Shown in pieces: positions 3,781 through 60,975 of a stretch of 64,000 nt of DNA. Every line of letters starts with the position of its first letter. The first letter of the stretch is position 1. The position numbers were made by a program, and so were the translations under genes. The DNA lies in the IMG/VR virus record IMGVR_UViG_3300025437_000009. One strand, 5' to 3'. The notes under the pieces were generated by a model, which was not told where the DNA came from, searched no databases, and was given only the letters and a program-made list of their open reading frames with translations. The DNA is from a virus. Its lineage: Duplodnaviria > Caudoviricetes.

Positions 3781-4053
3781 TTATTCTGTTGTTGTAAACT
3801 CGTTTGCGGAAACAACATCATCTACTGTTATGTTCTTAGTCTGTATGCTTCCGCTTGAATTTATCTGCTCTACTCGTAACACATGTGATCCGGGCAGTAA
3901 ATTTACTATAATATTTTCACGCACAAATACTTCGTGAGCTGACCAAATAAAATCTCGTTCAGTTAATAAATCACGGTCTACATATATGCGATATGTGGGA
4001 TTAGATTCTCCTCGACGTGCATATACATCTACGGTGATTTTATGTTCGGTCAT
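3781..4053 (-). CDS. hypothetical protein (90 aa)
   Basis: ORF overlapping the stop of the upstream gene. Confidence 0.6.
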   Translation of the reverse strand: MTEHKITVDVYARRGESNPTYRIYVDRDLLTERDFIWSAHEVFVRENIIVNLLPGSHVLRVEQINSSGSIQTKNITVDDVVSANEFTTTE

Positions 4054-5545: not shown

Positions 5546-6430
5546 TTATGGTGTTGGTGTTGCTTGTAGTGCTTTTTCCATTTGAGCACCCTGTGCTTTT
5601 AGTGTATCTTCAATGATACCCATGCTACCACGCTGACCGATAGCAATCTTATCTAAGTCACCAGCATATTCGTAATGTCCAACGTGGTTCAACAATACTT
5701 TACTGTGTGCCCAAATTTCGCCACCTAGTTCTTGCCAACGACGGCAGAATAGCCAATCTTCTGACAAATAGTGACCACGTTCGTCGATCTTGCAATCGAA
5801 GATTGAGTACATCATTGGCTCGTACTGCTTACCTAGACCTACATCGTCTACATATTTGCACTCTGGATGTGCAGCAATTAACTTTTCATATACTGAACGT
5901 TTGAATAGTAAGAAGCCTGTGCCCATTGTATCTACTGTAAAGATATCGCCTTGAATCTTAGTCTGTGGCATCAAGTTAATAACATAACTTACAGGTAGGG
6001 CCTTCTTAGGATACAAGCCACCGATGACTTCTTTATCGTAAGCCAACATACTTAGAATTGATTCTGGTTGGAAACGAATATCAGCATCAATAAACATGAA
6101 GTGAGTGGCCTGTGTGTTAGTCATCATCTTAGCCATTAAATTGTTACGAGCACGTGTTACTAATGATTCGTTAACCATTGTGTCTAATGACCAATTTAGA
6201 CCAGCTTGTGCGGCTAGTAATGTAAACCGTAGGAAGCTGGTCATTGTTGGTTCTGAAACCATACCACCATAGCATGGGATACCAATGTGCAAGTGAATTT
6301 TGCTAAAGTCAAACGGTTGACCTTGACCTTGTGGTTGTGCCACTGGAGCAGCGGCTGCTTGTTTTTGTTTTGCGGCTGCTGCTTTGATTAAATTCACAGC
6401 ATCGGCTTGACTGATTTTCTTATCGCTCAT
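5546..6430 (-). CDS. GT-A fold (GT2-like) glycosyltransferase
   Basis: IGIPCYGG, FMFIDADI (DxD), LSEDWLFCRRW motifs. Confidence 0.7.
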   Translation of the reverse strand: MSDKKISQADAVNLIKAAAAKQKQAAAAPVAQPQGQGQPFDFSKIHLHIGIPCYGGMVSEPTMTSFLRFTLLAAQAGLNWSLDTMVNESLVTRARNNLMAKMMTNTQATHFMFIDADIRFQPESILSMLAYDKEVIGGLYPKKALPVSYVINLMPQTKIQGDIFTVDTMGTGFLLFKRSVYEKLIAAHPECKYVDDVGLGKQYEPMMYSIFDCKIDERGHYLSEDWLFCRRWQELGGEIWAHSKVLLNHVGHYEYAGDLDKIAIGQRGSMGIIEDTLKAQGAQMEKALQATPTP

Positions 6431-6454
6431 TGATATCTCTCTTTAGTTAATTGA

Positions 6455-6619
6455 TTAGGCTGATGTTACTTCAACAAGTGTGCCTGCACCTGCTAATTCT
6501 TGTACTACTGCTTCTAAACTAGTAATTAGGTCTTCATTTACGGCTGTACCAGCGGTGTCTGAATCTTTAATTAATTTACTGATTTTAATAACCAGCACAT
6601 CTTCTTGTAATTTTGCCAT
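6455..6619 (-). CDS. small hypothetical protein (54 aa, MAKLQEDVLVIKISKL...), absent from ORF track
   Basis: AGGAG SD, TAAATA upstream, open frame to TAA. Confidence 0.7.
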   Translation of the reverse strand: MAKLQEDVLVIKISKLIKDSDTAGTAVNEDLITSLEAVVQELAGAGTLVEVTSA

Positions 6620-6644
6620 CACAGGCTCCTTGAATAATATGCTA

Positions 6645-7370
6645 TTATTTATCGGCCACTACAACCAGCTCGTGAATATTTGAAACCAAACCTGGAGAAA
6701 TTAATGCAATAAAAGTAGTGACACTAGGATCATTTGTGTAAAAATATCCATTCCACATGTAGCTACTAGATTTGGTTAGCATGGTCAAAAATCCATTGGG
6801 TATTTTAACCATTTCTGGCCCAAGAGAATTAAGATAGTTTAGTATGCTGTCCTTAACGTCTTTCGAATACTTACCATCACGGAGCACAACTTTATGGCTA
6901 TAGCCAAGATTCTTTTTGCGTATAATAGCACCAGAATCTAATAAATTCTTTGAAGTATCATCTTCTGGGCCAGTGATATTTTCAATATAGACGTGGTCTT
7001 TGGGACTAAAATATGTATCAATTATAGTTGTTAATTCTTCTTCGGAATTAGCGTATAGTTGTAGTCGAGGCTCTTCAATTCGCATTTTAATATTAGGTAA
7101 TCGCTGATGCCTTAAGGCTTTCATACGCTCAAGGAATTCAGGATCAGCCTTGTCTATATTTTTTGCTAGTCTTTCTCCCCACCATCCTTTGATATTTACG
7201 GATAAGACTCTGCGATGTTCTAATTCATCAACCACTGACCTTTTACTGTCTACAGCACGACCAGCTGGACAAAATACGATTAATCTATATAGATACCGCC
7301 CATAAAACTTTTTAGAAGTATGATCCCGTACAATCTTAGGATTGTACAGAATCCATTTTGATATATCCAT
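6645..7370 (-). CDS. hypothetical protein
   Basis: long ORF following clpA; start codon uncertain. Confidence 0.6.
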   Translation of the reverse strand: MDISKWILYNPKIVRDHTSKKFYGRYLYRLIVFCPAGRAVDSKRSVVDELEHRRVLSVNIKGWWGERLAKNIDKADPEFLERMKALRHQRLPNIKMRIEEPRLQLYANSEEELTTIIDTYFSPKDHVYIENITGPEDDTSKNLLDSGAIIRKKNLGYSHKVVLRDGKYSKDVKDSILNYLNSLGPEMVKIPNGFLTMLTKSSSYMWNGYFYTNDPSVTTFIALISPGLVSNIHELVVVADK

Positions 7371-9624
7371 TAGCATCAATCATAGGAGTTGCTGGGATAA
7401 ATTGACCCAGAGCAGTAAATTCAAAAGCATCATCCCGCCAATCGACTTCAATTACGGTGTGTGCAGGAATAGTGTCGAACAAAATCTTTTTACTTAGTGG
7501 TACTTTAATCAAATCGTTAATCTTACGACCTAAAGGACGAGCACCCATTTTACTATCGTAGCCAACTTCAGCTAAATGATCTGTTGCTGCTTCAGTTAAC
7601 CGAATCTTCAGTGATTTTTCACTTAGTAGATCATTCATTTCGTTAATAAACTTAGCAACAATCTTCTTAATACTGATAGTATCTAACTTATTAAACTTAC
7701 AAACACCATCTAAACGATTGCGGAACTCTGGTTTAAAGAAGTCTTTAACTGCTTTGTCATCTTCACCAGACTTTTGTAATTCACGACCAAAGCCAATGTT
7801 ATTACGTTCGTTATCTGCAGCACCAAGGTTACTGGTAAGAATAATAATGGCGTTACGTGCATCTGCTTTTTTACCGTTACTACTTGTAATAGTACCTTCG
7901 TCCATTAACTGTAGTAAGATATTCATTACATCCGGGTGTGCTTTTTCGACTTCGTCAAATAGAACAACACAGTTAGGATTCTTTTCAATGTCGCTGATTA
8001 ATAATCCGCCACCAAGATTTGAGTCATCATATCCAACATAACCTGGAGGAGCACCAATTAATTTAGCGGCTGCATGCTTTTCTTGATATTCACTCATATC
8101 GTAACGTAGCATCTTCATGCCCATACCTTCGGCCAACAATTTAGCAAGTTCTGTTTTACCAGTACCAGTTGGTCCCAGGAATAAGAAATTACCAATTGGT
8201 TTGTTCATTGATTTTAGTCCAGCACGTGCTACATAAATTTTATCCAGGACTGTATCTACTACAGAATCTTGTCCGTATAGTTTAGTTTTGATTGTTTCTT
8301 CCAGCCCCACAAGACTTTTAGTTGATTCAGATCCAATTTGTTCTGCGGGAATCTTAGTAAACTTACTGATAATGTCAACGATATGACTCTTACGCACAGT
8401 CCATGCTATGGCATTAATTTTTAATTTAGCTGCGGCTGTGTCAATTAAGTCAATGGCTTTGTCTGGTAACTTCTTGTCTGGTTGATAACGAACACTCAAA
8501 TCAACAGCGGCATCAATAGCTTCATCACTGATTGACCCTTCGTGGAATGCTTCAAAATATTCTTTAAGGCCATGTAAGATTTCTTTAGCTACTGCGGGAG
8601 TTGGTTCCTCGATGGTCATACGTACAAAGCGACGCATAAGGGCACGATCTTTTTCAAATGATTGTGTGTATTCTTCCCAAGTGGTTGATGCAATAACTTT
8701 AATTTGTCCTTTGGCCAGTGCAGGTTTAATCATATTAGCAAAGTCTACTGAACTGTTACTAGCTGAACCAGCTCCACGCATTTGATGTGCTTCATCAATA
8801 AACAAGATGCACTTGCCTTTGGCCTGTAGTGCACCAATGACATCTTTAAACTTTTCTTCAAACTCACCACGATATTTAGATCCAGCAAGCAATGACCCAA
8901 TATCTAAATTCCATACTGTGTAGTCGCGTAAGTATTCGGGAACACTACCCTCAACAATATTGCGGGCAAGTCCTTCGGCAATAGCTGTTTTACCCACACC
9001 GGCATCACCAACCATTAAGATATTACACTTGTTACGTTTGGCCAAGACCTGTGCTATTTCATCTAGTTCAAATTCACGTCCGACTACTGGATCAATTTTA
9101 CCGTCTTTGGCCTGCACATTTAAATTTTCACAGTATTCACGTAGAATATCATCGGCACGTGCATTGGCCGGCAAACGTTTGGCTTTACTTTCTACATAAT
9201 TTTGATTATAGAATTCAACCAATTGACTGCGTTCTAATCCATATTTGATAAAGAAATAACTTGCGTGGCTATTTGCTTCGCTGGCTATACTTAAAAAGAT
9301 ATCAATGACTTGTACATGATTACGTCCACTAAACAGGACCTGTGTAAATGCACGATTAAAAATTCTTTCAAGACTGTGAGTTTTCTTTGGAATATGATCT
9401 GCGTCAGGGGAAACTAGATATGTTTGTTTATTTAAATAATCCTCGAGGTCTTTAACTAGAGCATCAGCATCTATACCATAGGCCACAAGTAAATCATTAA
9501 ATGGTTTAAATGTTACAAGTCCGTGTGTTAAGTGTTCTATGGTAACATATTCGTGGTTATAATTTTTTGCTAGATCAGTTGCACTAGCAATAATAACTTC
9601 AATTTCTGGATTGTGTTGGATCAT
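7336..9624 (-). CDS. clpA: ATP-dependent Clp protease ATP-binding subunit ClpA
   Basis: Clp N-domain, two Walker A motifs (GDAGVGKT, GPTGTGKT), GSKYRGEFEE, LIGAPPGYVG, MGARPL; no ClpB middle domain. Confidence 0.92.
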   Translation of the reverse strand: MIQHNPEIEVIIASATDLAKNYNHEYVTIEHLTHGLVTFKPFNDLLVAYGIDADALVKDLEDYLNKQTYLVSPDADHIPKKTHSLERIFNRAFTQVLFSGRNHVQVIDIFLSIASEANSHASYFFIKYGLERSQLVEFYNQNYVESKAKRLPANARADDILREYCENLNVQAKDGKIDPVVGREFELDEIAQVLAKRNKCNILMVGDAGVGKTAIAEGLARNIVEGSVPEYLRDYTVWNLDIGSLLAGSKYRGEFEEKFKDVIGALQAKGKCILFIDEAHQMRGAGSASNSSVDFANMIKPALAKGQIKVIASTTWEEYTQSFEKDRALMRRFVRMTIEEPTPAVAKEILHGLKEYFEAFHEGSISDEAIDAAVDLSVRYQPDKKLPDKAIDLIDTAAAKLKINAIAWTVRKSHIVDIISKFTKIPAEQIGSESTKSLVGLEETIKTKLYGQDSVVDTVLDKIYVARAGLKSMNKPIGNFLFLGPTGTGKTELAKLLAEGMGMKMLRYDMSEYQEKHAAAKLIGAPPGYVGYDDSNLGGGLLISDIEKNPNCVVLFDEVEKAHPDVMNILLQLMDEGTITSSNGKKADARNAIIILTSNLGAADNERNNIGFGRELQKSGEDDKAVKDFFKPEFRNRLDGVCKFNKLDTISIKKIVAKFINEMNDLLSEKSLKIRLTEAATDHLAEVGYDSKMGARPLGRKINDLIKVPLSKKILFDTIPAHTVIEVDWRDDAFEFTALGQFIPATPMIDANGYIKMDSVQS

Positions 9625-15332: not shown

Positions 15333-15967
15333 TATGATTGTAGTATCTGTAGGGCTCGTTGGTAGTGAGCAATACGCTCATCTAATCCAAGGAATCCACC
15401 GTTAATTTTGTGTGTCATGGTTTTCATGTCACCGGCATCAGCAACATCATTTAAACTGTTTGCTTCCCAGAACCAACAAGCTGACTGTACACAACCTTCA
15501 AAGGTCAACAAAAACTCGCTGACCTGTTCTGGTGTACTATCGATACTTTGTCCAAATGCTGTATAGTTGGCACGACCAGTGAGCTGAATCAAGCCACGAC
15601 CACAAAAGCGCCATCCGTCTCCACTAGCTTCGTCACCGTTACCCATGCGATTAGCGTAGATGCGATTAGCAATAGCTTCTTGTTTGTTAGGTTGCGAACA
15701 GTATTGTTGAATTTCATCCATACCGCTAAAATGATGACCAAATAACTTCATTAGAGTCTCTGGACGATAGTTTAGATTTTCTTGGATTGCTGTATAGCCA
15801 GCAGATTCTACTGCTGTCTGACCTAAAAAGGCCGCAACACGTGCTACAGTACTGATGTCATAGTCAGGTAATACTTTGCATAATGCCTCGTACCAATGAG
15901 GTACGTGCTGATTTTGTGGCAAAAATTGCTGTAACTGGTCCTGAGTAAAATTGAATTGAAACGCCAT
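15332..15967 (-). CDS. endolysin, glycoside hydrolase family 19
   Basis: ES..Y..IQENLNY, DGWRFCGRGLIQLTGRANY, WFWEANSLN..AD, INGG..GL.ER. Confidence 0.92.
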   Translation of the reverse strand: MAFQFNFTQDQLQQFLPQNQHVPHWYEALCKVLPDYDISTVARVAAFLGQTAVESAGYTAIQENLNYRPETLMKLFGHHFSGMDEIQQYCSQPNKQEAIANRIYANRMGNGDEASGDGWRFCGRGLIQLTGRANYTAFGQSIDSTPEQVSEFLLTFEGCVQSACWFWEANSLNDVADAGDMKTMTHKINGGFLGLDERIAHYQRALQILQS

Positions 15968-15968
15968 A

Positions 15969-15999
15969 GCTAACTCCTTACTTGATGTAAGTATTTAGC
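15969..15999 (-). promoter_or_regulatory. late promoter TAAATA inside an RBS-occluding hairpin of the endolysin gene
   Basis: GCTAA-ATA-CTTAC-ATCAA-GTAAG-GAG-TTAGC. Confidence 0.6.
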
Positions 16000-16030
16000 A
16001 ATTTATACTATTTGAGATATTACAACTGTG

Positions 16031-16579
16031 TTAGCGTATGATTCCAGCCAGATTTCTTAGAGATTCTGTGTAATCATTTTTGGGTGCTTTGGTAGTAACT
16101 TCTACACCTGCTACAGCTTTTAGTTTGTCAATGGCTTCTTGACCGTATTCTCTCTCGTAGGCTTCTGGAGTTAGGGGAATTAAGTCTTGTAGGGATTCTA
16201 GGCTTAAAGCAGTTTCTTTGTGAGCTTTATAGTAACGTACACGCCAATCTTCAATTTGTTGATCAGTTACATTCATTAGGTCATTCATCAAGCTCATGAT
16301 ATTTTCGGGAGCAGATTTGTCACGATCAAGTTCAACAAACACGATATAACTACCGTCTTCCATTTCACCTGAACTGAGGTCGGCATCTAAAACCCAGTCG
16401 TAGCCTTTTTCAACAAAACTAACCAGATCAGCAGCTGATTCTTTGGCACTGAGTTTAAAACTTAGTACAATAACGTCTGAGTCGTCGCCCAGTTTGCTTT
16501 TAAATTCATCAACGTGTAATTCAGGGTGAACCAAACGCTTTAGATCGCCTAGTTCTAGGCCTTCAAATAACTTATGCAT
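16031..16579 (-). CDS. conserved phage hypothetical protein
   Basis: ORF; start chosen from SD spacing (MHKLFEG). Confidence 0.6.
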   Translation of the reverse strand: MHKLFEGLELGDLKRLVHPELHVDEFKSKLGDDSDVIVLSFKLSAKESAADLVSFVEKGYDWVLDADLSSGEMEDGSYIVFVELDRDKSAPENIMSLMNDLMNVTDQQIEDWRVRYYKAHKETALSLESLQDLIPLTPEAYEREYGQEAIDKLKAVAGVEVTTKAPKNDYTESLRNLAGIIR

Positions 16580-17099
16580 TTTGAACATTTTCCTCAGGAC
16601 CTGACACGTTAGAATTTTCATCTTCACCAGTTTCATATGCTTGGTCAATATCTTCTAGGTCAACTGTACCACTAGCTAATTCTAAAGCACCCTGCTCAAT
16701 GTCTTTCATCAGCTTTTTAGGCATAACAATAGTAACTAACCAAACTGGTGTTTGAACCATTTTAGGTACTTTAGTTCCTGGTTTAAAATCCTTGGGATCT
16801 TTTACTTTTTTTGTGTGCTCAAAAAAGTCTTGTTTGTACTCAACATTACAGTCGTATTCGGCTAATCGTGCTGCACCCTTGGGGTTTGGCATTTTTTTGT
16901 AGGGCCACATAAATGTGCAGGTCACAAAGTATTTTTCGTAGATAGGACCCTCTACAAGTTCACCTTGCTTCCAATGTTCAAAAGCATAAAGATCGAGTTC
17001 ATCTAAGACACGTTCAAAATCCAGCAGGGTTGAGACTGCTGAATCCGTCATGAATATTTCTTTTGTATTGTTTAGTAGGTCTCTAATATTAGCCGGCAT
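16572..17099 (-). CDS. conserved phage hypothetical protein
   Basis: ORF with TAAATA 8 nt upstream. Confidence 0.65.
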   Translation of the reverse strand: MPANIRDLLNNTKEIFMTDSAVSTLLDFERVLDELDLYAFEHWKQGELVEGPIYEKYFVTCTFMWPYKKMPNPKGAARLAEYDCNVEYKQDFFEHTKKVKDPKDFKPGTKVPKMVQTPVWLVTIVMPKKLMKDIEQGALELASGTVDLEDIDQAYETGEDENSNVSGPEENVQNA

Positions 17100-54254: not shown

Positions 54255-54290
54255 AACGTAATCCTTTATGATATAGTATTATTTATCATA

Positions 54291-54314
54291 CTAAACCCGC
54301 CGAAGCGGGTTTAG
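54291..54314 (-). terminator. hairpin ending the tmRNA
   Basis: CTAAACCCGC-TTCG-GCGGGTTTAG. Confidence 0.75.
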
Positions 54315-54560
54315 GTTATTTTCTGTTACGAGGTATAACTACCCTAGGCGCTGTTAGGCTGCCAATGCGAACTGTTCGTCGTTTGCGTTTACGTTATTTG
54401 CTTTTTACGTCTACTCCTGACGTGTTGCCTTTGTCGCTATCTCACCATGTCGAAACCAAATACGGGCCCACCGAAATATACTACACAATACACTTCGGTG
54501 GACCCGCCGGGGGTCGAACCCGGGTCCACAATGCCTTTGCTAGAAAGGAATTACAACAAT
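54315..54560 (-). ncRNA. ssrA: circularly permuted two-piece tmRNA, tag (A)ANDEQFALAA
   Basis: T-arm CCGGGTTCGACCCCCGG plus CGGGTCC-A-CC (54497..54523) precedes the 5' end GGGCCCG (54469); G3-U70 pair; tag ORF 54354..54386; outer ends approximate. Confidence 0.9.
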
Positions 54561-54691
54561 TACTTGACTGCTTCTGTGTGCTTGTGCTTCAAGCTCTTCT
54601 TTAGCAGTTTAAACCAAAATTTCTTAACTTTATCAAGGTTATGCTCGATTTCGGCCTTGTAAAGTTTACGAACTAATTTTTCAACTTTCAT
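54560..54691 (-). CDS. small basic protein (43 aa), absent from ORF track
   Basis: GGAGG SD; TTGACC-17-TATAAT at 54711..54739. Confidence 0.65.
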   Translation of the reverse strand: MKVEKLVRKLYKAEIEHNLDKVKKFWFKLLKKSLKHKHTEAVK

Positions 54692-54722: not shown

Positions 54723-55526
54723 TTATTGAATTTGGTCAACGGTATTTGCGTGTTTTGGACGAGTAACAAACTTTTGTCGAACTGATTCAAATAATTCATA
54801 TTCTTCTGGAGTGATAACCGCCGAATCAATTTCTTTGCGAACAGCCTGATGAAATTCAAATAGTTGCTGGATGTCTGCTTCGTACTTAAAGTATTTGGTA
54901 ATGTGTTTAGTATCATAAGCATCCATAATTAAATGAAATCTATCTTCATTTGAATCATTGCGTATTTGATGCCAATCATTGACCCATACCATATACGCAT
55001 TTCCCGGTTCCATATATAGGTCGGTTCCGTGCATAATAAATTTGCACTTTTCGTTAGTTATCAAAGGTATATGAAGTCTGGCCATATATTCGTGATCGCC
55101 AGAGTCTTTGTGTACTAAACTCTTTGCGCCAGCTTTTAAACAGGTTACACGAGCACGTCTCGGTGTTAGGCCAAATGCTTCTATTTGATCAATGACTTTT
55201 GCGAACTCGCCAACACAGGCCTGAGTTGGTTTATCATGTTCGGTACTCATAGCAATACCAAAAAACTTTAGTGTTTTATAGTTATTAGCGTTCTTAGGAA
55301 AAAATATTTCTAATTCTTTGCCTTCATCGTTTTGAAAATAATCCCAACCGTCACGCCAATCGCCAGTACGAGAAGTAACGGACCAACCACCAAAGCCATG
55401 GTATGCAGGTGTTTCGTATTCTTCGCCTTGAATAACCTGTTGTCCCAATGGAAATATATGTTCCTTAAGATCCTGTACTAACTTACTATGATCGAATGTG
55501 ACCATATCTAATTTTTCATAAAACAT
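54723..55526 (-). CDS. Asp/Asn beta-hydroxylase-like 2OG-Fe(II) oxygenase
   Basis: R.R...L..G....HKD, RLHIPLITN, WH...N.S.EDR.HLIMD. Confidence 0.8.
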   Translation of the reverse strand: MFYEKLDMVTFDHSKLVQDLKEHIFPLGQQVIQGEEYETPAYHGFGGWSVTSRTGDWRDGWDYFQNDEGKELEIFFPKNANNYKTLKFFGIAMSTEHDKPTQACVGEFAKVIDQIEAFGLTPRRARVTCLKAGAKSLVHKDSGDHEYMARLHIPLITNEKCKFIMHGTDLYMEPGNAYMVWVNDWHQIRNDSNEDRFHLIMDAYDTKHITKYFKYEADIQQLFEFHQAVRKEIDSAVITPEEYELFESVRQKFVTRPKHANTVDQIQ

Positions 55527-56058
55527 TTTGAATATCCTTGATCATTTCTTTTACTTCATCAAAACTGTATTTGTTAGTTGCCAATTGTAACACTTCTCGT
55601 ACCGGTTTGTCAAAGTCATCGATTGACACTTCGTGTATTACCTTGTTGTCTATTAGATAAATGTCATACGGATCAGCATTAAATGTTCCCAACAGAGTCA
55701 ACGATTCTTTAGAGTATATATGCCCTTCTCCGTGATCAGCATACTCAATCCCTCCAATACCCAAGTTGTTGGCATACATGTTGGTAGAATATCCGGCTGG
55801 TTGTACGTAGCAATTAAGTCCAGCAGTTTCTACTATGTCAGTGTGCGGCGGTATGTTATCATTTATAACTAATAAACTAGAATAAAAATCACCGTGTACT
55901 TCCTTGGGTAATAAATTATACAATGTTTCCAATATTGTACTTGCTACATCATAGTATCTAATACCATAGAATTTGTCTGCTGGTCTGGTAGCAAACTCTA
56001 TTTGCTTTTTTAAAACAGTTATAAGACCACTAGGTGCTTGACCAACGTACTTAAACAT
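55516..56058 (-). CDS. 2OG-Fe(II) oxygenase-like protein
   Basis: IPPHTD...IHEV (HxD...H). Confidence 0.6.
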   Translation of the reverse strand: MFKYVGQAPSGLITVLKKQIEFATRPADKFYGIRYYDVASTILETLYNLLPKEVHGDFYSSLLVINDNIPPHTDIVETAGLNCYVQPAGYSTNMYANNLGIGGIEYADHGEGHIYSKESLTLLGTFNADPYDIYLIDNKVIHEVSIDDFDKPVREVLQLATNKYSFDEVKEMIKDIQNVL

Positions 56059-56599
56059 CTAACAGTCCGTAATCATTGAGCATAGCGTAAACTTCTGCAT
56101 AGGTCATGTCAGTACTGAGATTAAGAACAAATCTAGGATTGTCTGCTGATAATTCATCTACACTATGTATTGCTGTGGTGTCTAGTAGGTAAACATCGCC
56201 TGGATGCGCTATAAACTGCTCTTCGAAGTTTAAGTTAGTTGGCTTCATACTACATGCACACTCGCCGGCAGTAAACTTTTCAAAGTTACAACCGTTGCAG
56301 TCTTTGGCTAACTCTTTGTAGTCACCAGAATAAAATCTAGTAGTGGCGTTATTTTCTGAAAGATAAATGTTGATCTTACACTGGATGCCTTGGTCTCTGT
56401 GCGGCACAATGCGACCACGCATGGCCAAATGTGTTAGAAAGAATCTCTGCTGATACTCTGGCGGTATAATGATACTGCTGTCGAGATCTACATATGAATA
56501 GGTGGATAAAGTACCGGCGCAGATATATTGAGTACCAAGTAGTTTAAAGTTTTCATATTTGGCAGGGTCAATTGATTTTAAACGAGCATGGTACTTCAT
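56051..56599 (-). CDS. 2OG-Fe(II) oxygenase-like protein
   Basis: IVPHRD...GDVYLLDT..IHSV...R. Confidence 0.6.
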   Translation of the reverse strand: MKYHARLKSIDPAKYENFKLLGTQYICAGTLSTYSYVDLDSSIIIPPEYQQRFFLTHLAMRGRIVPHRDQGIQCKINIYLSENNATTRFYSGDYKELAKDCNGCNFEKFTAGECACSMKPTNLNFEEQFIAHPGDVYLLDTTAIHSVDELSADNPRFVLNLSTDMTYAEVYAMLNDYGLLDV

Positions 56600-57249
56600 A
56601 GTAATCCTTTAATTTTGAGCATAGAATCTACCCAACTTGTTATAACTAATTTATCAGTACTGTCGTCGGTTAGTTTGTAATTAAAATCAGTAGACAAACT
56701 AACACGTAGAGAATTGCTTTTATTTGCCTTAACTCCGTGTAATACATAGGATGGAAAGAAAATTAGGTCTCCAGACACGGGCTGTATATGTTTAATTTGA
56801 GTCTTGTGTTCTCCCACTAACCCAGTATCTAAATAATAAAGTTCTCCGCCTTCTGCGGGAGTAGTTATATAGTAAGTAGAGGCTATAGTCGAATCTGGAT
56901 GTCCGTGAAATTCGATAACTTCGTCAGGTTCTTTTATATTTGGCCAACTCGATAAGGGTGTGAATATGGCCGTATGTGTGTCGGGTAGATAGTCGTTTAC
57001 TGTAAAAGTTATTACATCTACCTTAGTATCTAGTAATTCTTTTAATCGTGGGCTGCTATCAGTATAATCTAATAGACTACTACCAACATTTTTATCTATG
57101 CCCAGTTTAATGTTGCTGGCTATATTGTACAATTCTACCAACAACTCTTGATTAAAGTTATCGTTAAATTTGGTTTTGTAAGTCCAAACAGGACTTTCCC
57201 ATAGTGTTTGTTTTACACTACTTTCGTATATGCCTTTTTCATACGACAT
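56596..57249 (-). CDS. putative 2OG-Fe(II) oxygenase (TIGR02466-like)
   Basis: H.HP.S.I...YY, GDL.FFPS...H.V, R.SLS. Confidence 0.8.
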   Translation of the reverse strand: MSYEKGIYESSVKQTLWESPVWTYKTKFNDNFNQELLVELYNIASNIKLGIDKNVGSSLLDYTDSSPRLKELLDTKVDVITFTVNDYLPDTHTAIFTPLSSWPNIKEPDEVIEFHGHPDSTIASTYYITTPAEGGELYYLDTGLVGEHKTQIKHIQPVSGDLIFFPSYVLHGVKANKSNSLRVSLSTDFNYKLTDDSTDKLVITSWVDSMLKIKGLL

Positions 57250-57252
57250 GAT

Positions 57253-57666
57253 TTAGTTGGTGGTTGGGATTATCCCGTTTTCTTGTTGAAATTTAATCAA
57301 TGGTGCAAAGTCTAGACCTTGTTTTACAGCCAGGTCTTCTGGGAATGGGCGATTGTTTGCGGTCAACCACTCTTTGTATTCTGCTACGATCCAGCTAGGT
57401 GTATAGTCTATGCCCTCATGATGATCGGCTAAGGCTTCATAAAATTCATTACCGTAGCGTACAAAATTTGTAAAAGGTGCGCCCTTTAAAAAGAATAGTG
57501 TATCCAAAATTGGAGAATGATCAGTAATCATTTTAAAAAATTGATCTTTTTCTTCCGCTGATAGGTTATGTATGATTCCGTTTACTTCTGTATCTAAAAA
57601 ATATTTTATACAGTCGTTATATTGGTCTGGTGTTACTTCTTCAAAAATTTTATTCACGTTAGGCAT
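57253..57666 (-). CDS. hypothetical protein (137 aa)
   Basis: coupled ORF within the operon. Confidence 0.6.
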   Translation of the reverse strand: MPNVNKIFEEVTPDQYNDCIKYFLDTEVNGIIHNLSAEEKDQFFKMITDHSPILDTLFFLKGAPFTNFVRYGNEFYEALADHHEGIDYTPSWIVAEYKEWLTANNRPFPEDLAVKQGLDFAPLIKFQQENGIIPTTN

Positions 57667-58656
57667 TTATGCTTCCTTTAACAATTTTGATTTAACACGG
57701 CCGAATAAATTTTTAACATTGAGTATTGCCTTGCCAGTGTAGTAACTGAAATACAATAAAGATAAAATAGTCCAAGAAGTAAAGAAACCGTGTTTTCTAT
57801 ATTTGCGCGGCACTCTTGGAATACTACCAAAGAATTTACACAAAGGACGACCGATGGACATTAAGATACGACCATAGTCGTTGTCTTTGTTTAGAGTACC
57901 CATAATATAGGCCATATGCTCTGACCATGGTTGGCCAACACGATATAGTATATCTGTGGCAAATTCTTTTTGTTTGAGCTTACGTTCTTCTTTGTCTAAA
58001 ATCCAAGGCATAAAGTCTGGACCATGACCATCCATCCATTGAGTACAAATCTTAGCCCACTTGATGTAGCCACGATAAATTGTTTTATCTTTTTTACGTA
58101 GAACTCGACCGTATGCTTGGTCTGCTGACCAAACTTCTTGGCTCATCATTCCCATGTCGTAGAATTTAGCACAAACAATCTTAGAGCAGTTGCAAGCACA
58201 GTTACAGTTGTAGCTTACCAGGCCAGTATTGCAATTATAACTTACTGCACCACCGCAGTTACAATTATATGTACAGGCACAATTACAGTTGGACTGTAAC
58301 CACGCTTGACCGTCGCAGTTAGCACAGTTTACATTAGTTGAACAGTTAGCACAGTTCGAACAATCACTAGGACCAGCAATAACACAATTAGTACACTGAA
58401 TATTACCACAGTTACAGTTGTTGGTACAGTTGCCATTAGGGCCGCCCGATGGCGAACAGTTGCCGTTGTTACAGTTGCCTTGGTTGTTATTTTGAAAATA
58501 AGTTAAACCATAGAATCCCTGTAGGTGTGGGGTGCCGGGACGTTGCCCTGGCGTGATTAAATTGTTAAGAAAACTTAGACTAGCGGAATACCCGGGACGT
58601 CCAGTTTCTGAAAGAATTTGGCTAACTGATATAGGGCCGGATGATGGTAGTGTCAT
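57667..58656 (-). CDS. Asn-Cys-repeat protein: virion-type N-terminus, 22-Cys core, KIVC domain, C-terminal TM
   Basis: MTLPSSGPIS start; Cys-rich residues 62-157; own TAAATA 7 nt upstream. Confidence 0.75.
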   Translation of the reverse strand: MTLPSSGPISVSQILSETGRPGYSASLSFLNNLITPGQRPGTPHLQGFYGLTYFQNNNQGNCNNGNCSPSGGPNGNCTNNCNCGNIQCTNCVIAGPSDCSNCANCSTNVNCANCDGQAWLQSNCNCACTYNCNCGGAVSYNCNTGLVSYNCNCACNCSKIVCAKFYDMGMMSQEVWSADQAYGRVLRKKDKTIYRGYIKWAKICTQWMDGHGPDFMPWILDKEERKLKQKEFATDILYRVGQPWSEHMAYIMGTLNKDNDYGRILMSIGRPLCKFFGSIPRVPRKYRKHGFFTSWTILSLLYFSYYTGKAILNVKNLFGRVKSKLLKEA

Positions 58657-59375
58657 AGTATAGTATTTATCTTGATCAAATTAAGAAACTCTAGTATTTT
58701 TATATAGCACCATCCTAGGTCAATTTCAAACCAACGTTTAGCAAAATTTGCACAGGCCGGAAACTCGTGATGATTATTGTGCAGTTCTTCACCACAGCCT
58801 AGTAGTCCCAAAGGTAAAACATTTGTACTGGTATCGGGCCTATCATAGTTCCTGTAACCAATTTTGTGCCCAAATCCAGTGATAGTGGCATTTACAAACA
58901 GACTCACGGAAAACATGTGCACCAGCCAGGCCACAATACCTAGCCAGCCAAATAAACCAATGTTTATTGTTAGTAGTATTAACAGGCCTAATTTTGTATG
59001 GCAGTAGACATTCTTTTCTAACCAATTCTCTTTAAAATCACGACTGAAGTGTGCGGTTTCCCAATCGGTATTCCAATATTGGTATTCTCTAAAAAAGTTA
59101 GGTATTAAACAATGTCCAGTGACCCGCCAAAAACCAGATAATAACGGACTATGCGGATCACCGTGTACATCGGTAAACATATGATGTATTCGATGTTGGG
59201 CAATAAATGGCTTGGGATAGATTCCCTCGGTTATCCAGAACAAAAAACGGAATACATGCTCGACTATAGGATACTTGATTGTATACTGCCGATGTATCAA
59301 GTATCTATGCAGATATATCGATGTTAATACTATACCAAGATGTGCTGTACATATAGTATATACAACAACGTCCAT
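58653..59375 (-). CDS. membrane fatty-acid desaturase (delta-9 type)
   Basis: His boxes HRYLIH, HRIHH, HNNHH; GDPHSP; EIDLGW. Confidence 0.88.
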   Translation of the reverse strand: MDVVVYTICTAHLGIVLTSIYLHRYLIHRQYTIKYPIVEHVFRFLFWITEGIYPKPFIAQHRIHHMFTDVHGDPHSPLLSGFWRVTGHCLIPNFFREYQYWNTDWETAHFSRDFKENWLEKNVYCHTKLGLLILLTINIGLFGWLGIVAWLVHMFSVSLFVNATITGFGHKIGYRNYDRPDTSTNVLPLGLLGCGEELHNNHHEFPACANFAKRWFEIDLGWCYIKILEFLNLIKINTIL

Positions 59376-60823
59376 TATGCGCTTTCTACGCGGCTTTTCC
59401 CATAAACTTCAACATCATCGATGGTACCAATTTTTTCTGCTACCACTTTAATAGGAATAATCTTCTTAACGGCCTTTTCCTTGTGTTCGTAGATAGTGCC
59501 AAAAATATCCTGGCGTTCTAATGGTAGTGCATCATTTTTAATCAGTGTAGGAATATAACCCGTTATTTTTTCTATAGCTAGGGCAAAAAGAGCCACATTG
59601 TCTGAATAAGCATTGGCACAAGATATTTCCCAAAACTTATTGTCTAAGAACATACAAGCACCCTTACAGACATGCAACACTGGGCAACTGGGGCATTCTG
59701 CACGATTTGACCAATGTGTTGAAGTTTTGATTGCTACATTATCATAGTCATCTAATGTACCGCCTAGGTGACTTTCACCGTTTTTGCTGGTTTCTACTGC
59801 TGAGACGTTTTGACAGGTTATCACATTGCCACGCAGGTCCACAGCGATTGCACGTTGATCATCCATGCCACATTTTTGTCCTAGGGTATCTGCTTCTTGG
59901 TGTGTTAGTACACTTTTAATAAATCCGTCAATCTTACCTAATTGTCCGGTAAATCCAATACGACCTTGGGTTGAAAAAATATCCGCAAATGCAGTACGTC
60001 TAAAATCAAAATGTTCTTCTAGGGTTTGTAGACTGTTGCTCATACCCTCTTCGTCATAAGCATCAACAATAGAACCTTCACCTAACTGTATGTCGGGATT
60101 TCCTGTTAGTTCTACAAACCAATCATAAATTGCCTTACGGCTTTTATTTTTAGCATGCAACATGGGGTTGAAACTGATGCCTTTTTTCAATCGACTCATC
60201 ATGCGATAAAAACCTAATAGTCTTTTCTTTTGGTCTGGATCATCAAACGGATCTGGTCCGCGAACTGACTGCCCAGGACCGTCATGTGAGATACTAACTG
60301 AAAAATTTAGTGCCATTAACCAATCAATCATTTCGTCGGTTAGAATACTACCGTTGGTAATAACAGAAAATAATGGTTTACGTTTCCAGTCTTTAAATCT
60401 TTCTAATAGTGCTTCAGCTAGGGGTTTGAAAGTTTTCCAATAGACAAATGGCTCACCTCCCCAAAACTCTACCTTAAGTCCATCTTCTTCACTGAACTCT
60501 AATACATCCAATTTGGCAAGAAAAGCATCAATATCTTTCTTACTAGTTTCTGGAGCACGCTCTACAAATTTTTGTGAACAGTAATCACAGGTGTAGTTAC
60601 AACTCAGTCCAAGTTGAATTTTTAATAGTTGAATGCCGCGGGATTTTTTAAGAGGACGGTCGCGGTCGAAAGGTATATAAGGTTCTAGTCCCTCTATCTT
60701 GTATGAACCCTTTGGATATTCGTACAAGTTACCTTGTTCGTCTTTGAGTGTATTGGCTTGATTGTCGTAATAAAAAATACGTTTATCGTCGGTGCTGCGT
60801 TCAGCATGAATTTCAAATAGCAT
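59375..60823 (-). CDS. radical SAM/SPASM-domain enzyme (peptide-maturase type)
   Basis: CNYTCDYC; FWGGEP; TNG; S.SHDG; SPASM CG...G.V..C...C..C.....C.G.C....C. Confidence 0.92.
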   Translation of the reverse strand: MLFEIHAERSTDDKRIFYYDNQANTLKDEQGNLYEYPKGSYKIEGLEPYIPFDRDRPLKKSRGIQLLKIQLGLSCNYTCDYCSQKFVERAPETSKKDIDAFLAKLDVLEFSEEDGLKVEFWGGEPFVYWKTFKPLAEALLERFKDWKRKPLFSVITNGSILTDEMIDWLMALNFSVSISHDGPGQSVRGPDPFDDPDQKKRLLGFYRMMSRLKKGISFNPMLHAKNKSRKAIYDWFVELTGNPDIQLGEGSIVDAYDEEGMSNSLQTLEEHFDFRRTAFADIFSTQGRIGFTGQLGKIDGFIKSVLTHQEADTLGQKCGMDDQRAIAVDLRGNVITCQNVSAVETSKNGESHLGGTLDDYDNVAIKTSTHWSNRAECPSCPVLHVCKGACMFLDNKFWEISCANAYSDNVALFALAIEKITGYIPTLIKNDALPLERQDIFGTIYEHKEKAVKKIIPIKVVAEKIGTIDDVEVYGKSRVESA

Positions 60824-60843: not shown

Positions 60844-60930
60844 TTATTGATCAGTATCAAGCCAATCTTTGACTGTGATTATTGCATAGATCAAAAGTGC
60901 AGAAAAGATTATAAAGGCTAGATATGTCAT
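60844..60930 (-). CDS. 28-aa single-TM peptide, absent from ORF track
   Basis: MTYLAFIIFSALLIYAIITVKDWLDTDQ; ATG 5 nt after TAAATA. Confidence 0.45.
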   Translation of the reverse strand: MTYLAFIIFSALLIYAIITVKDWLDTDQ

Positions 60931-60935
60931 AACAA

Positions 60936-60975
60936 TATTTATTAATAAGTGCTAACCAGTAACACTTATTAATAA
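60936..60975 (-). promoter_or_regulatory. late promoter overlapped by a 13-bp perfect inverted repeat
   Basis: TTATTAATAAGTG-11-CACTTATTAATAA; TAAATA at 60936..60941. Confidence 0.6.

Follow-up and report, generated by a model that had tools for sequence, protein, structure and literature searches.

What kind of protein is made from a phage gene whose middle part consists largely of asparagine and cysteine, and how is it related to the radical S-adenosylmethionine (SAM) enzyme that is encoded just upstream of it? This question is raised by P0001, a protein of 329 amino acids (aa) predicted from a stretch of 64,000 nucleotides of viral DNA (IMG/VR virus record IMGVR_UViG_3300025437_000009; Duplodnaviria, Caudoviricetes), which is called the window below. 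An earlier reading made from the letters and their translations only, the sequence-only reading, had described it as a tripartite precursor with a leader, an Asn-Cys core and a membrane-anchored release domain. The present analysis indicates that P0001 is probably a late-expressed, fibre-associated protein of three modules, of which the Asn-Cys module would be modified by the adjacent radical SAM enzyme. The gene, its parts and the gene of the enzyme are located as follows.

57667..58656, minus strand: coding sequence of P0001, 329 aa, a tripartite Asn-Cys protein (open reading frame translation).
58483..58656, minus strand: N-terminal domain, residues 1-58 (MTLPSSGPIS...FYGLTYFQ), the proposed docking domain (AlphaFold2 pLDDT [predicted local distance difference test] 81-90, BFVD, 6F45_D).
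58186..58476, minus strand: Asn/Cys-rich core, residues 61-157, ending in YNCNCACNC; the part on which the radical SAM enzyme is proposed to act (composition).
58171..58185, minus strand: junction S158-K159-I160-V161-C162, invariant in the close family (alignments).
57802..58185, minus strand: helical C-terminal domain (KIIC), residues 158-285, a generic module of phage structural or fibre-type proteins (AlphaFold2 above 90, profile).
57718..57786, minus strand: hydrophobic and aromatic part of the last helix, residues 291-313, with basic flanks; a candidate tail anchor (AlphaFold2, hydropathy).
59375..60823, minus strand: radical SAM enzyme, 482 aa, the proposed maturase of the core (CxxxCxxC and seven-Cys SPASM pattern).

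The composition of the core was recounted. Residues 62-157 (nucleotides 58186..58473) hold 22 Cys and 24 Asn, and once N61 is included there are 18 Asn-Cys dipeptides, in agreement with the sequence-only reading, which had counted 22 Cys and seen Asn directly before 18 of these. Shuffling of the 97-residue core gave a mean of 5.7 and a maximum of 15 such dipeptides, and 18 or more were found in none of 200,000 shuffles. Cys accounts for 23% of the core, Asn stands at -1 or -3 of 21 of the 22 core Cys, and N-x-x-C occurs 10 times, one being contained in every NCNC unit. P0001 has the highest Cys density of all open reading frames (ORFs) of at least 100 aa in the window. At the level of the DNA the core is not tandemly repeated; a single weak 9-bp array is present at 58316..58356.

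At least 475 homologues of P0001, 42-77% identical and all unannotated, were found in metagenomic data from large freshwater phages, in some cases on freshwater contigs of 200-365 kb. In 99 aligned sequences all three parts are conserved, including the MTLPSSGPIS...FYG N-terminus and the SKIVC...ADQ.YG...GY..WA segment that the sequence-only reading had pointed out. The Cys-rich middle varies between 63 and 188 aa through the gain and loss of short units (GGPNGNC, the 11-residue xNCxNCxxCxx, and AVSYNCxTx), while a fixed set of Cys and Asn positions and the end ...YNCNCACNC-SKI(I/V)C are retained; the residues that most commonly precede Cys in the family are N, A, Q and D. Whole P0001 matched no family in Pfam, PHROGs or NCBIfam, and when its parts were searched separately, as the sequence-only reading had proposed, residues 1-125 and 158-329 matched no Pfam family at E values up to 10. 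The sole match in a sequence search of the PDB was a spurious, triple-counted one to a cytochrome c555 trimer. With the full P0001 model Foldseek found nothing in the PDB at E<=0.001, only generic helical bundles being listed, and a 12-kb piece of the window had no megablast match among cultured phages.

The strongest evidence on the role of the core came from the company that it keeps. In 79 of 80 IMG/VR loci the radical SAM gene lies directly upstream of the P0001 homologue, the exception having no upstream DNA, and it remains adjacent while other genes of the neighbourhood shuffle. Distant orthologues of the enzyme (36-60% identity) occur in Burkholderiales-type prophages. They are also present in the tail-fibre modules of two cultured phages, with 47% identity in Ralstonia phage RSP15 and 45% in Achromobacter phage JWF. 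In JWF the fibre protein gp028 carries the Asn-Cys run ...QNCNCDCNCNCS (NCNCDCNCNCS), which leads straight into a Hint domain (Hom_end_hint, 47.5 bits, from residue 308), and gp030 is the radical SAM enzyme; in RSP15 the side tail fibre gp048 ends with ...NTNCQCGN. A scan of bacterial genomes added 80 further radical SAM loci (L097-L176), mostly from Limnohabitans, Polynucleobacter, Paraburkholderia, Burkholderia paludis and other Burkholderiales and in some cases from Alphaproteobacteria. The counts refer to the 55 loci with at least 3.3 kb of upstream sequence. In 53 of these a same-strand ORF with a (C-x)n-C run and Asn was present within 3.3 kb upstream of the radical SAM gene, against 5 of 2691 control ORFs. 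The run ended within 8 residues of the C-terminus in 50 loci (e.g. ...YNFNCNCNCACDCCC) and was followed by a Hint domain in 2. The ORFs with Asn-Cys tails in the bacterial loci look like tail-fibre-type proteins, with N-termini resembling that of JWF gp028 and lengths of 200-620 aa. The pairing recurs with different N-terminal parts in a metagenomic contig (ENA ERZ28593573; L094), where Asn-Cys paralogues lie beside a giant DUF4815 protein and the radical SAM gene is 2 kb off, and in L096. That the core might be independent of the enzyme, the outcome that the sequence-only reading had named as its own refutation, is contradicted by both counts. Since the enzyme tracks the motif across at least four unrelated protein contexts, these data argue strongly that the Asn-Cys motif is the substrate of the radical SAM enzyme.

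Some of these loci show further particulars. In L094 (positions 6001-8230) three tandem paralogues of 353, 187 and 195 aa share an MTKARNLA... N-region and all have terminal Asn-Cys runs; the KIIC domain is present on the first paralogue only, which offers a natural comparison of an anchored and unanchored forms in one phage. In each of three loci examined for it, 2-oxoglutarate (2OG) oxygenase genes separate the fibre gene from the radical SAM gene; at least two of the loci continue with lysis-type genes. A protein of about 260 aa that resembles RSP15 gp047 and has faint Ig-like similarity (e.g. L012:5314-6129 and L109:6574-7350) is encoded in 40 of the 80 loci from bacterial genomes, between the Asn-Cys-tailed fibre and the oxygenase and radical SAM genes; it is absent from the window and may be a further partner of the system.

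The radical SAM enzyme of the window matched PF04055 with 34.6 bits (cut-off 29.5) and the SPASM family TIGR04085 with 32.2 bits (cut-off 27). Its CxxxCxxC motif and the full seven-Cys SPASM pattern are invariant in 7 orthologues. The segment in front of the radical SAM motif is only about 65 residues long, and the profile-library scans of the enzyme matched no RRE-type family. Its best sub-threshold similarities in NCBIfam were to PapB, QhpD, CcpM, the SCIFF maturase and TIGR04463, anSME being listed as well, and two solved chains matched it by sequence, 8VPO and CteB (5WGG). By profile and solved structure the nearest characterized relatives are thus PapB (substrate PapA, freyrasin), CteB (CteA, SCIFF) and QhpD (QhpC), which form thioethers from Cys to carbon on repeated Cys motifs, QhpD doing so on a protein subunit. 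Unlike P0001, their substrates are short peptides or an enzyme subunit, and the acceptors are Asp or Glu in CX3D-type motifs and not runs of Asn-Cys. An Asn acceptor is known from NxxcB, which links Cys to the Asn of an NxxC motif by a beta-thioether and also accepts Ala, Gln or Asp at the position of this Asn (PMC9389541). N-x-x-C is present in the NCNC units of P0001 and the tolerated residues match those found before Cys in its family, but NxxcA is a short streptococcal peptide under quorum-sensing regulation and the resemblance of the motifs is a lead only.

The closest parallel in arrangement is CrpC, a SPASM radical SAM enzyme of Methanococcus voltae that installs ranthionine cross-links on the Cys-rich protein CrpA, aided by the N-terminal part of CrpA (PMC13692751, 2026). 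In both systems the enzyme is encoded beside a large protein with a conserved N-terminal part and C-terminal repeated Cys motifs, the Cys-rich part is modelled by AlphaFold with low confidence, and TIGR04463, the family of CrpC, is among the sub-threshold matches of the window enzyme; with 44 bits against a cut-off of 525 the latter is not a member of that family. The differences are that CrpC and CrpA are archaeal cellular proteins and not those of a phage, that CrpA has C-x-x-Q/D in repeats of 17 residues where P0001 has Asn-Cys, CxC and CxxC, that CrpC has an RRE whereas none was detected in the window enzyme, and that CrpA is without a fibre context, oxygenases and a KIIC domain.

The N-terminal part of P0001 connects it to tail fibres. 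With the P0001 alignment AlphaFold2 folded residues 1-58 with a pLDDT of 81-90, and a strand at residues 119-121 packed against this domain. Stand-alone proteins of about 130 aa from Polynucleobacter (L100; 131 aa) and Paraburkholderia (L101) align to residues 1-157 of P0001 and stop at the Asn-Cys tail, and a third locus (L129) has a similar stand-alone ORF. In the first two the stand-alone gene has on one side a tail fibre gene with the intramolecular chaperone Peptidase_S74 (above the Pfam cut-off) and on the other side the radical SAM gene; in Polynucleobacter it is located behind lambda-like tail genes including that of the central fibre J, and the enzyme is 60% identical to that of the window. 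In BFVD the domain matched the N-termini of small phage proteins, two of which are annotated with a Gp38 domain (E 0.04-0.5); another, gp18 of Ralstonia phage Anchaing, is 170 aa long and without Cys repeats, and its gene and the end of that for the tail fibre overlap. Of 48,161 representative PDB chains only 6F45_D, gp38 of phage S16, gave Z>=2: its residues 2-46 aligned weakly with the domain (Z 2.2, root mean square deviation 2.3 A over 45 residues). Like the stand-alone homologues in L100 and L101, the gp38 adhesin of T2 and S16 (PDB 6F45; PF05268) is a small protein encoded right after gp37, the distal tail fibre gene, and it likewise consists of an N-domain of about 50 residues followed by a module of extreme composition. 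It differs in that this module is a glycine-rich sandwich and not Asn/Cys-rich, in having no maturase, and in its gene position, the window gene not being beside a fibre gene. The matches of the N-domain are weak and found no confirmation in sequence searches. The likeliest interpretation is that residues 1-58 are a fibre-docking domain, which is meant as a reading and not as membership of the gp38 family. The proposal that the N-terminus is the leader of a modified peptide was not supported, given that it is a folded, conserved domain that also heads fibre-adjacent proteins without a Cys-rich part.

The C-terminal part is of wider occurrence. A profile of residues 158-329 matched 1139 representative proteins (E<=0.001) of up to 1859 aa, and the match was always C-terminal. 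At its start the domain reads (G/C/S)-K-I-I-C-T-K-L; the stretch before it is in nearly all cases a low-complexity linker, which consists of poly-Gly, poly-Pro or, in members linked to the radical SAM enzyme, Asn-Cys. C162, D179, G196 and Y197 do not vary among 135 diverse representatives, H247 being under the reported 60% level. S158-K159 was considered as a dyad like that of Peptidase_S74; as a feature of the domain in general it was dismissed, S158 being unconserved across these representatives. The passengers of KIIC include DUF4815, Gly_rich_2 and Hint-containing proteins. DUF4815 corresponds to PHROG_358, whose members are annotated variously as virion structural, baseplate, neck or tail proteins (PMC8341000), and the DUF4815-type carriers of KIIC sit among large structural-type genes. 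The domain is independent of the radical SAM enzyme, because members with a Gly linker have none nearby: the enzyme was absent from the whole genome of cyanophage SynMITS9220M01, where a Gly-linker KIIC protein follows the fibre genes, and from two other contigs with such proteins, within 8 kb or within the contig stretch examined.

Four KIIC proteins (P0145, P0157, P0205 and P0233; Gly_rich_2 proteins where checked) carry a Hint/intein-like domain that ends in ...VHN directly before KIICTKL. Since some members have Hint in front of it, KIIC may not cleave itself. The residue after ...VHN is Cys in P0233, as at a true intein junction, and Lys in the other three, which suggests cleavage and not splicing in the latter. 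The position of KIIC recalls that of Peptidase_S74 and Hint domains: it stands at the extreme C-terminus of fibre-type or structural proteins after a linker, it has an invariant Cys four residues in, and in JWF-type fibres Hint begins exactly where KIIC begins in P0001. Unlike these domains, KIIC gave no sequence or fold match to them, is all-helical (residues 160-329, pLDDT above 90), has a hydrophobic tail, and its junction Ser is not conserved in the wider family. Removal of KIIC is suggested by the stand-alone proteins that end at the junction, by Hint taking the same place in JWF-type fibres and by the Hint domain interposed in some KIIC proteins.

The division of P0001 into three parts was borne out by these comparisons, the C-terminal part being separable. 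A release domain as postulated in the sequence-only reading was not substantiated, no protease family being recognized, S158 being unconserved outside the close family and many carriers having no radical SAM gene nearby. As to the transmembrane helix that had been proposed at about residues 291-313, a helix is indeed predicted at the C-terminal end, but its transmembrane strength was not confirmed: the best 19-residue Kyte-Doolittle mean of P0001 is 0.96, against a family median of 1.71 (n=151). The hydrophobic C-terminal end suggests a transient tethering to the membrane.

P0001 belongs to a co-directional block of genes with overlapping stops and starts, in the order radical SAM enzyme, desaturase, P0001, 137-aa protein, 2OG oxygenase, 182-aa protein, 180-aa protein and aspartyl/asparaginyl beta-hydroxylase-family protein; the start codon of P0001 overlaps the stop codon of the desaturase gene (ATGA). 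The remaining members are listed here.

58653..59375, minus strand: compact DesA-like membrane desaturase, 240 aa, with three His boxes; facultative.
57253..57666, minus strand: 137-aa protein of no known family; a facultative cassette member.
56596..57249, minus strand: 2OG-FeII_Oxy_5 (TIGR02466-type) oxygenase, 217 aa; facultative.
56051..56599, minus strand: 182-aa protein with faint similarity to AspH/HalD-type oxygenases; in every locus whose flank reaches it.
55516..56058, minus strand: 180-aa protein without a family match; in every locus whose flank reaches it.
54723..55526, minus strand: aspartyl/asparaginyl beta-hydroxylase-family protein, 267 aa; in every locus whose flank reaches it.

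Across the 80 IMG/VR loci the radical SAM enzyme, the P0001 homologue, the 180-aa and 182-aa proteins and the AspH-like protein are present as far as the flanking DNA reaches, whereas the desaturase, the 137-aa protein and the Oxy_5 oxygenase are variably present or relocated; the desaturase is part of the cassette in a sizeable minority. For the 137-aa protein an Atlas search returned low-score unnamed clusters only. In one lineage the cassette lies between the terminase and head-protease genes and not near DNA ligase. Arrays of dioxygenases have been described in cyanophages, together with beta-hydroxylase operons that also encode proteins of the phage tail-collar type (Iyer et al., 2010; PMC2938197).

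Late expression is suggested by the sequences upstream of the homologues. (T)ATAAATA, the T4 late promoter consensus, occurs in 28 of 51 distinct upstream regions, mostly about 20-30 nucleotides before the start codon; in the remaining regions the gene is coupled to the stop of the radical SAM gene. The window contains the following site.

58664..58670, minus strand: ATAAATA, 7 nucleotides before the P0001 ATG, within the end of the desaturase coding sequence; a possible late-promoter core.

Because the ATG overlaps the desaturase stop and ATAAATA is just 7 nucleotides upstream, a promoter of its own is not claimed for P0001 in the window; exact TATAAATA is absent before the gene. Over the window as a whole 20 copies of ATAAATA stand on the coding (minus) strand and 3 on the plus strand, mostly within about 30 nucleotides upstream of gene starts (minus-strand examples are at 3784, 5085, 9636, 12921, 36402 and 54286). 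The T4 late consensus in its exact form, TATAAATA, does not occur on the minus strand of the window, and the distribution of ATAAATA suggests that it is a variant late-promoter core in this phage.

From these observations a course of events may be proposed. Residues 1-58 would be a small folded domain for docking, of a type found at the head of small proteins whose genes directly follow those of tail fibres, and may resemble the fibre-attachment domain of gp38. The radical SAM enzyme would modify the Asn-Cys module (residues 61-157) in the cytoplasm as a dedicated protein substrate. The likeliest product would be a thioether from Cys to the beta- or gamma-carbon of Asn or Asp, which would harden or staple the module; oxidation of Cys as by anSME, or a role in the assembly of a metal site, might be the outcome instead. 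The AspH-like protein and the other oxygenases of the cassette would probably hydroxylate remaining Asn and Asp. Residues 158-329 would probably hold or assemble the protein transiently, perhaps at the membrane, and KIIC would then be removed, so that the (Asn-Cys)n run would come to lie free at the C-terminus, as it does in the relatives that stand alone or are fused to fibres.

A number of results weigh against this proposal. No curated NCBIfam equivalog was reached by the radical SAM enzyme (PapB 80 bits against a cut-off of 340, QhpD 70 against 453, SCIFF 45 against 425, TIGR04463 44 against 525), so that thioether formation is only the nearest known chemistry, and anSME-like Cys oxidation is also within its sub-threshold matches. 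AlphaFold2 could not fold the Cys-rich core, for which the pLDDT was below 50 in the full-length model and again with residues 1-158 alone, and thus gives no structural support for any pattern of cross-links; prediction of a homotrimer of residues 1-158 (score 0.00, fold confidence below 50) weighs neither for nor against. Much of the 79/80 linkage is shared ancestry among related phages; support that is independent of it is given by the loci of the distant orthologues. Residues 1-125 gave no match to Pfam GP38 (PF05268) at E up to 10, and 6F45 was not among the sequence matches of P0001 in the PDB. The cassette of the window stands apart from fibre genes, its nearest identified neighbours being DNA ligase, clamp loader and transfer-messenger RNA (tmRNA) genes. 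In related phage records of 236-357 kb the one S74-type fibre match that each contains is far from the cassette where it was located. Finally, KIIC matched no protease family in Pfam and no solved fold with Foldseek, and the last helix of P0001 is weakly hydrophobic.

This last point bears on the idea that P0001 is a permanent inner-membrane protein, in which the tail anchor keeps the modified module on the cytoplasmic side of the host membrane, for instance next to the desaturase, for a part in infection such as exclusion, lysis timing or redox and metal handling. The wider C-domain family does end in a helix of transmembrane type (89 of 151 members reach 1.6), a membrane desaturase accompanies a sizeable minority of the cassettes, and the genes that surround the cassette in the window are non-structural. 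The helix of P0001 itself falls short of this, the desaturase is facultative, stand-alone and fibre-fused relatives are without an anchor, and the passengers of the C-domain include DUF4815 virion structural proteins among large structural-type genes. We consider a permanent membrane protein unlikely. Alternatively, the core could be an unmodified metal-binding or disulfide-rich domain, of which the CxC and CxxC motifs serve as ligands of Zn or Fe or become disulfide-bonded after lysis, while the radical SAM enzyme acts elsewhere. T4 gp37 binds iron via HxH motifs. The CxC and CxxC motifs and the Cys content resemble the composition of a metallothionein or zinc ribbon, the alternation of residues in a strand would place all Cys on one face, and the failure of AlphaFold2 on the core fits a fold that depends on a metal or on oligomerization. 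This leaves the tracking of the motif by the enzyme over at least four unrelated contexts, in 53 of 55 distant loci against 5 of 2691 control ORFs, without explanation, and metal binding and enzymatic cross-linking are compatible with each other; we consider an unmodified domain improbable.

Doubtful, too, is a classical precursor of a peptide made on the ribosome and modified after translation (RiPP), from which the leader would be removed and the Asn-Cys core released as a small modified active peptide, with the C-domain serving as anchor and in release. The cassette does resemble a RiPP cluster in that a SPASM radical SAM enzyme and tailoring oxygenases are encoded beside a Cys-rich product, the number of core repeats varies as in multi-core precursors, and CrpA likewise has a conserved N-terminal part that aids the engagement of the substrate (PMC13692751). 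P0001 is long for such a precursor, with 329 aa and two confidently folded domains, and its folded N-domain is common to non-Cys proteins encoded after tail fibre genes. The same Asn-Cys tails end tail-fibre-type proteins of 200-620 aa, T4-type late promoters precede many homologues, no peptidase or exporter/transporter family was found among the cassette proteins searched (Pfam, PHROGs and NCBIfam), and the enzyme has just its short segment before the radical SAM motif and no RRE match.

The preferred reading, a fibre-associated protein with an enzymatically modified Asn-Cys module, can be extended to the system as a whole. In phages of freshwater Burkholderiales-type hosts and in many related prophages a dedicated SPASM radical SAM/oxygenase pathway could covalently cross-link the (Asn-Cys)n module at the distal end of the tail-fibre apparatus. 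KIIC would be a removable, membrane-tethering assembly domain of a novel kind, the loss of which lays this end bare, and this would be the first radical SAM modification of a host-recognition structure of a virion. We offer this extension tentatively, with the balance somewhat on the side of doubt. To our knowledge, the substrates for which radical SAM/SPASM thioether chemistry has been described are short antimicrobial-type peptides, a single enzyme subunit (QhpC) and, since 2026, a single Cys-rich protein of an archaeon (CrpA). The combination of a SPASM maturase and a Cys-rich protein substrate is known; the phage is a new biological setting for it, and no account of a link between phage fibre proteins and a radical SAM enzyme came up in literature searches. 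If true, it would constitute a new class of virion protein modification on the apparatus of host contact, in spirit like the capsid cross-link of HK97 but enzymatic, and the stability of fibres, host range and phage engineering could be affected. The analysis also defines two modules that are unannotated and very widespread in phages: the N-domain of MTLPSSG type and the C-domain KIIC, the latter with over 1,100 representative clusters. Cultured carriers of the system are Achromobacter phage JWF, Ralstonia phage RSP15, and prophages of Polynucleobacter and Limnohabitans.

The surroundings of the cassette showed some further features. Directly downstream of it, at 54263..54588 (minus strand), ARAGORN found a permuted two-piece tmRNA gene with the tag ANDEQFALAA, which is unusual in a phage. 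Just upstream of the radical SAM gene an ORF of 28 codons, MTYLAFIIFSALLIYAIITVKDWLDTDQ (60844..60930, minus strand), encodes a single hydrophobic helix and starts 5 nucleotides after a AATAAATA motif at 60936..60943. In related large phages the cassette is flanked by genes for TctC (Bug-family) periplasmic binding proteins (L006:7619-8536 and 15797-16753; L007:13604-14566), which fit Burkholderiales-type hosts and look like auxiliary metabolic genes.

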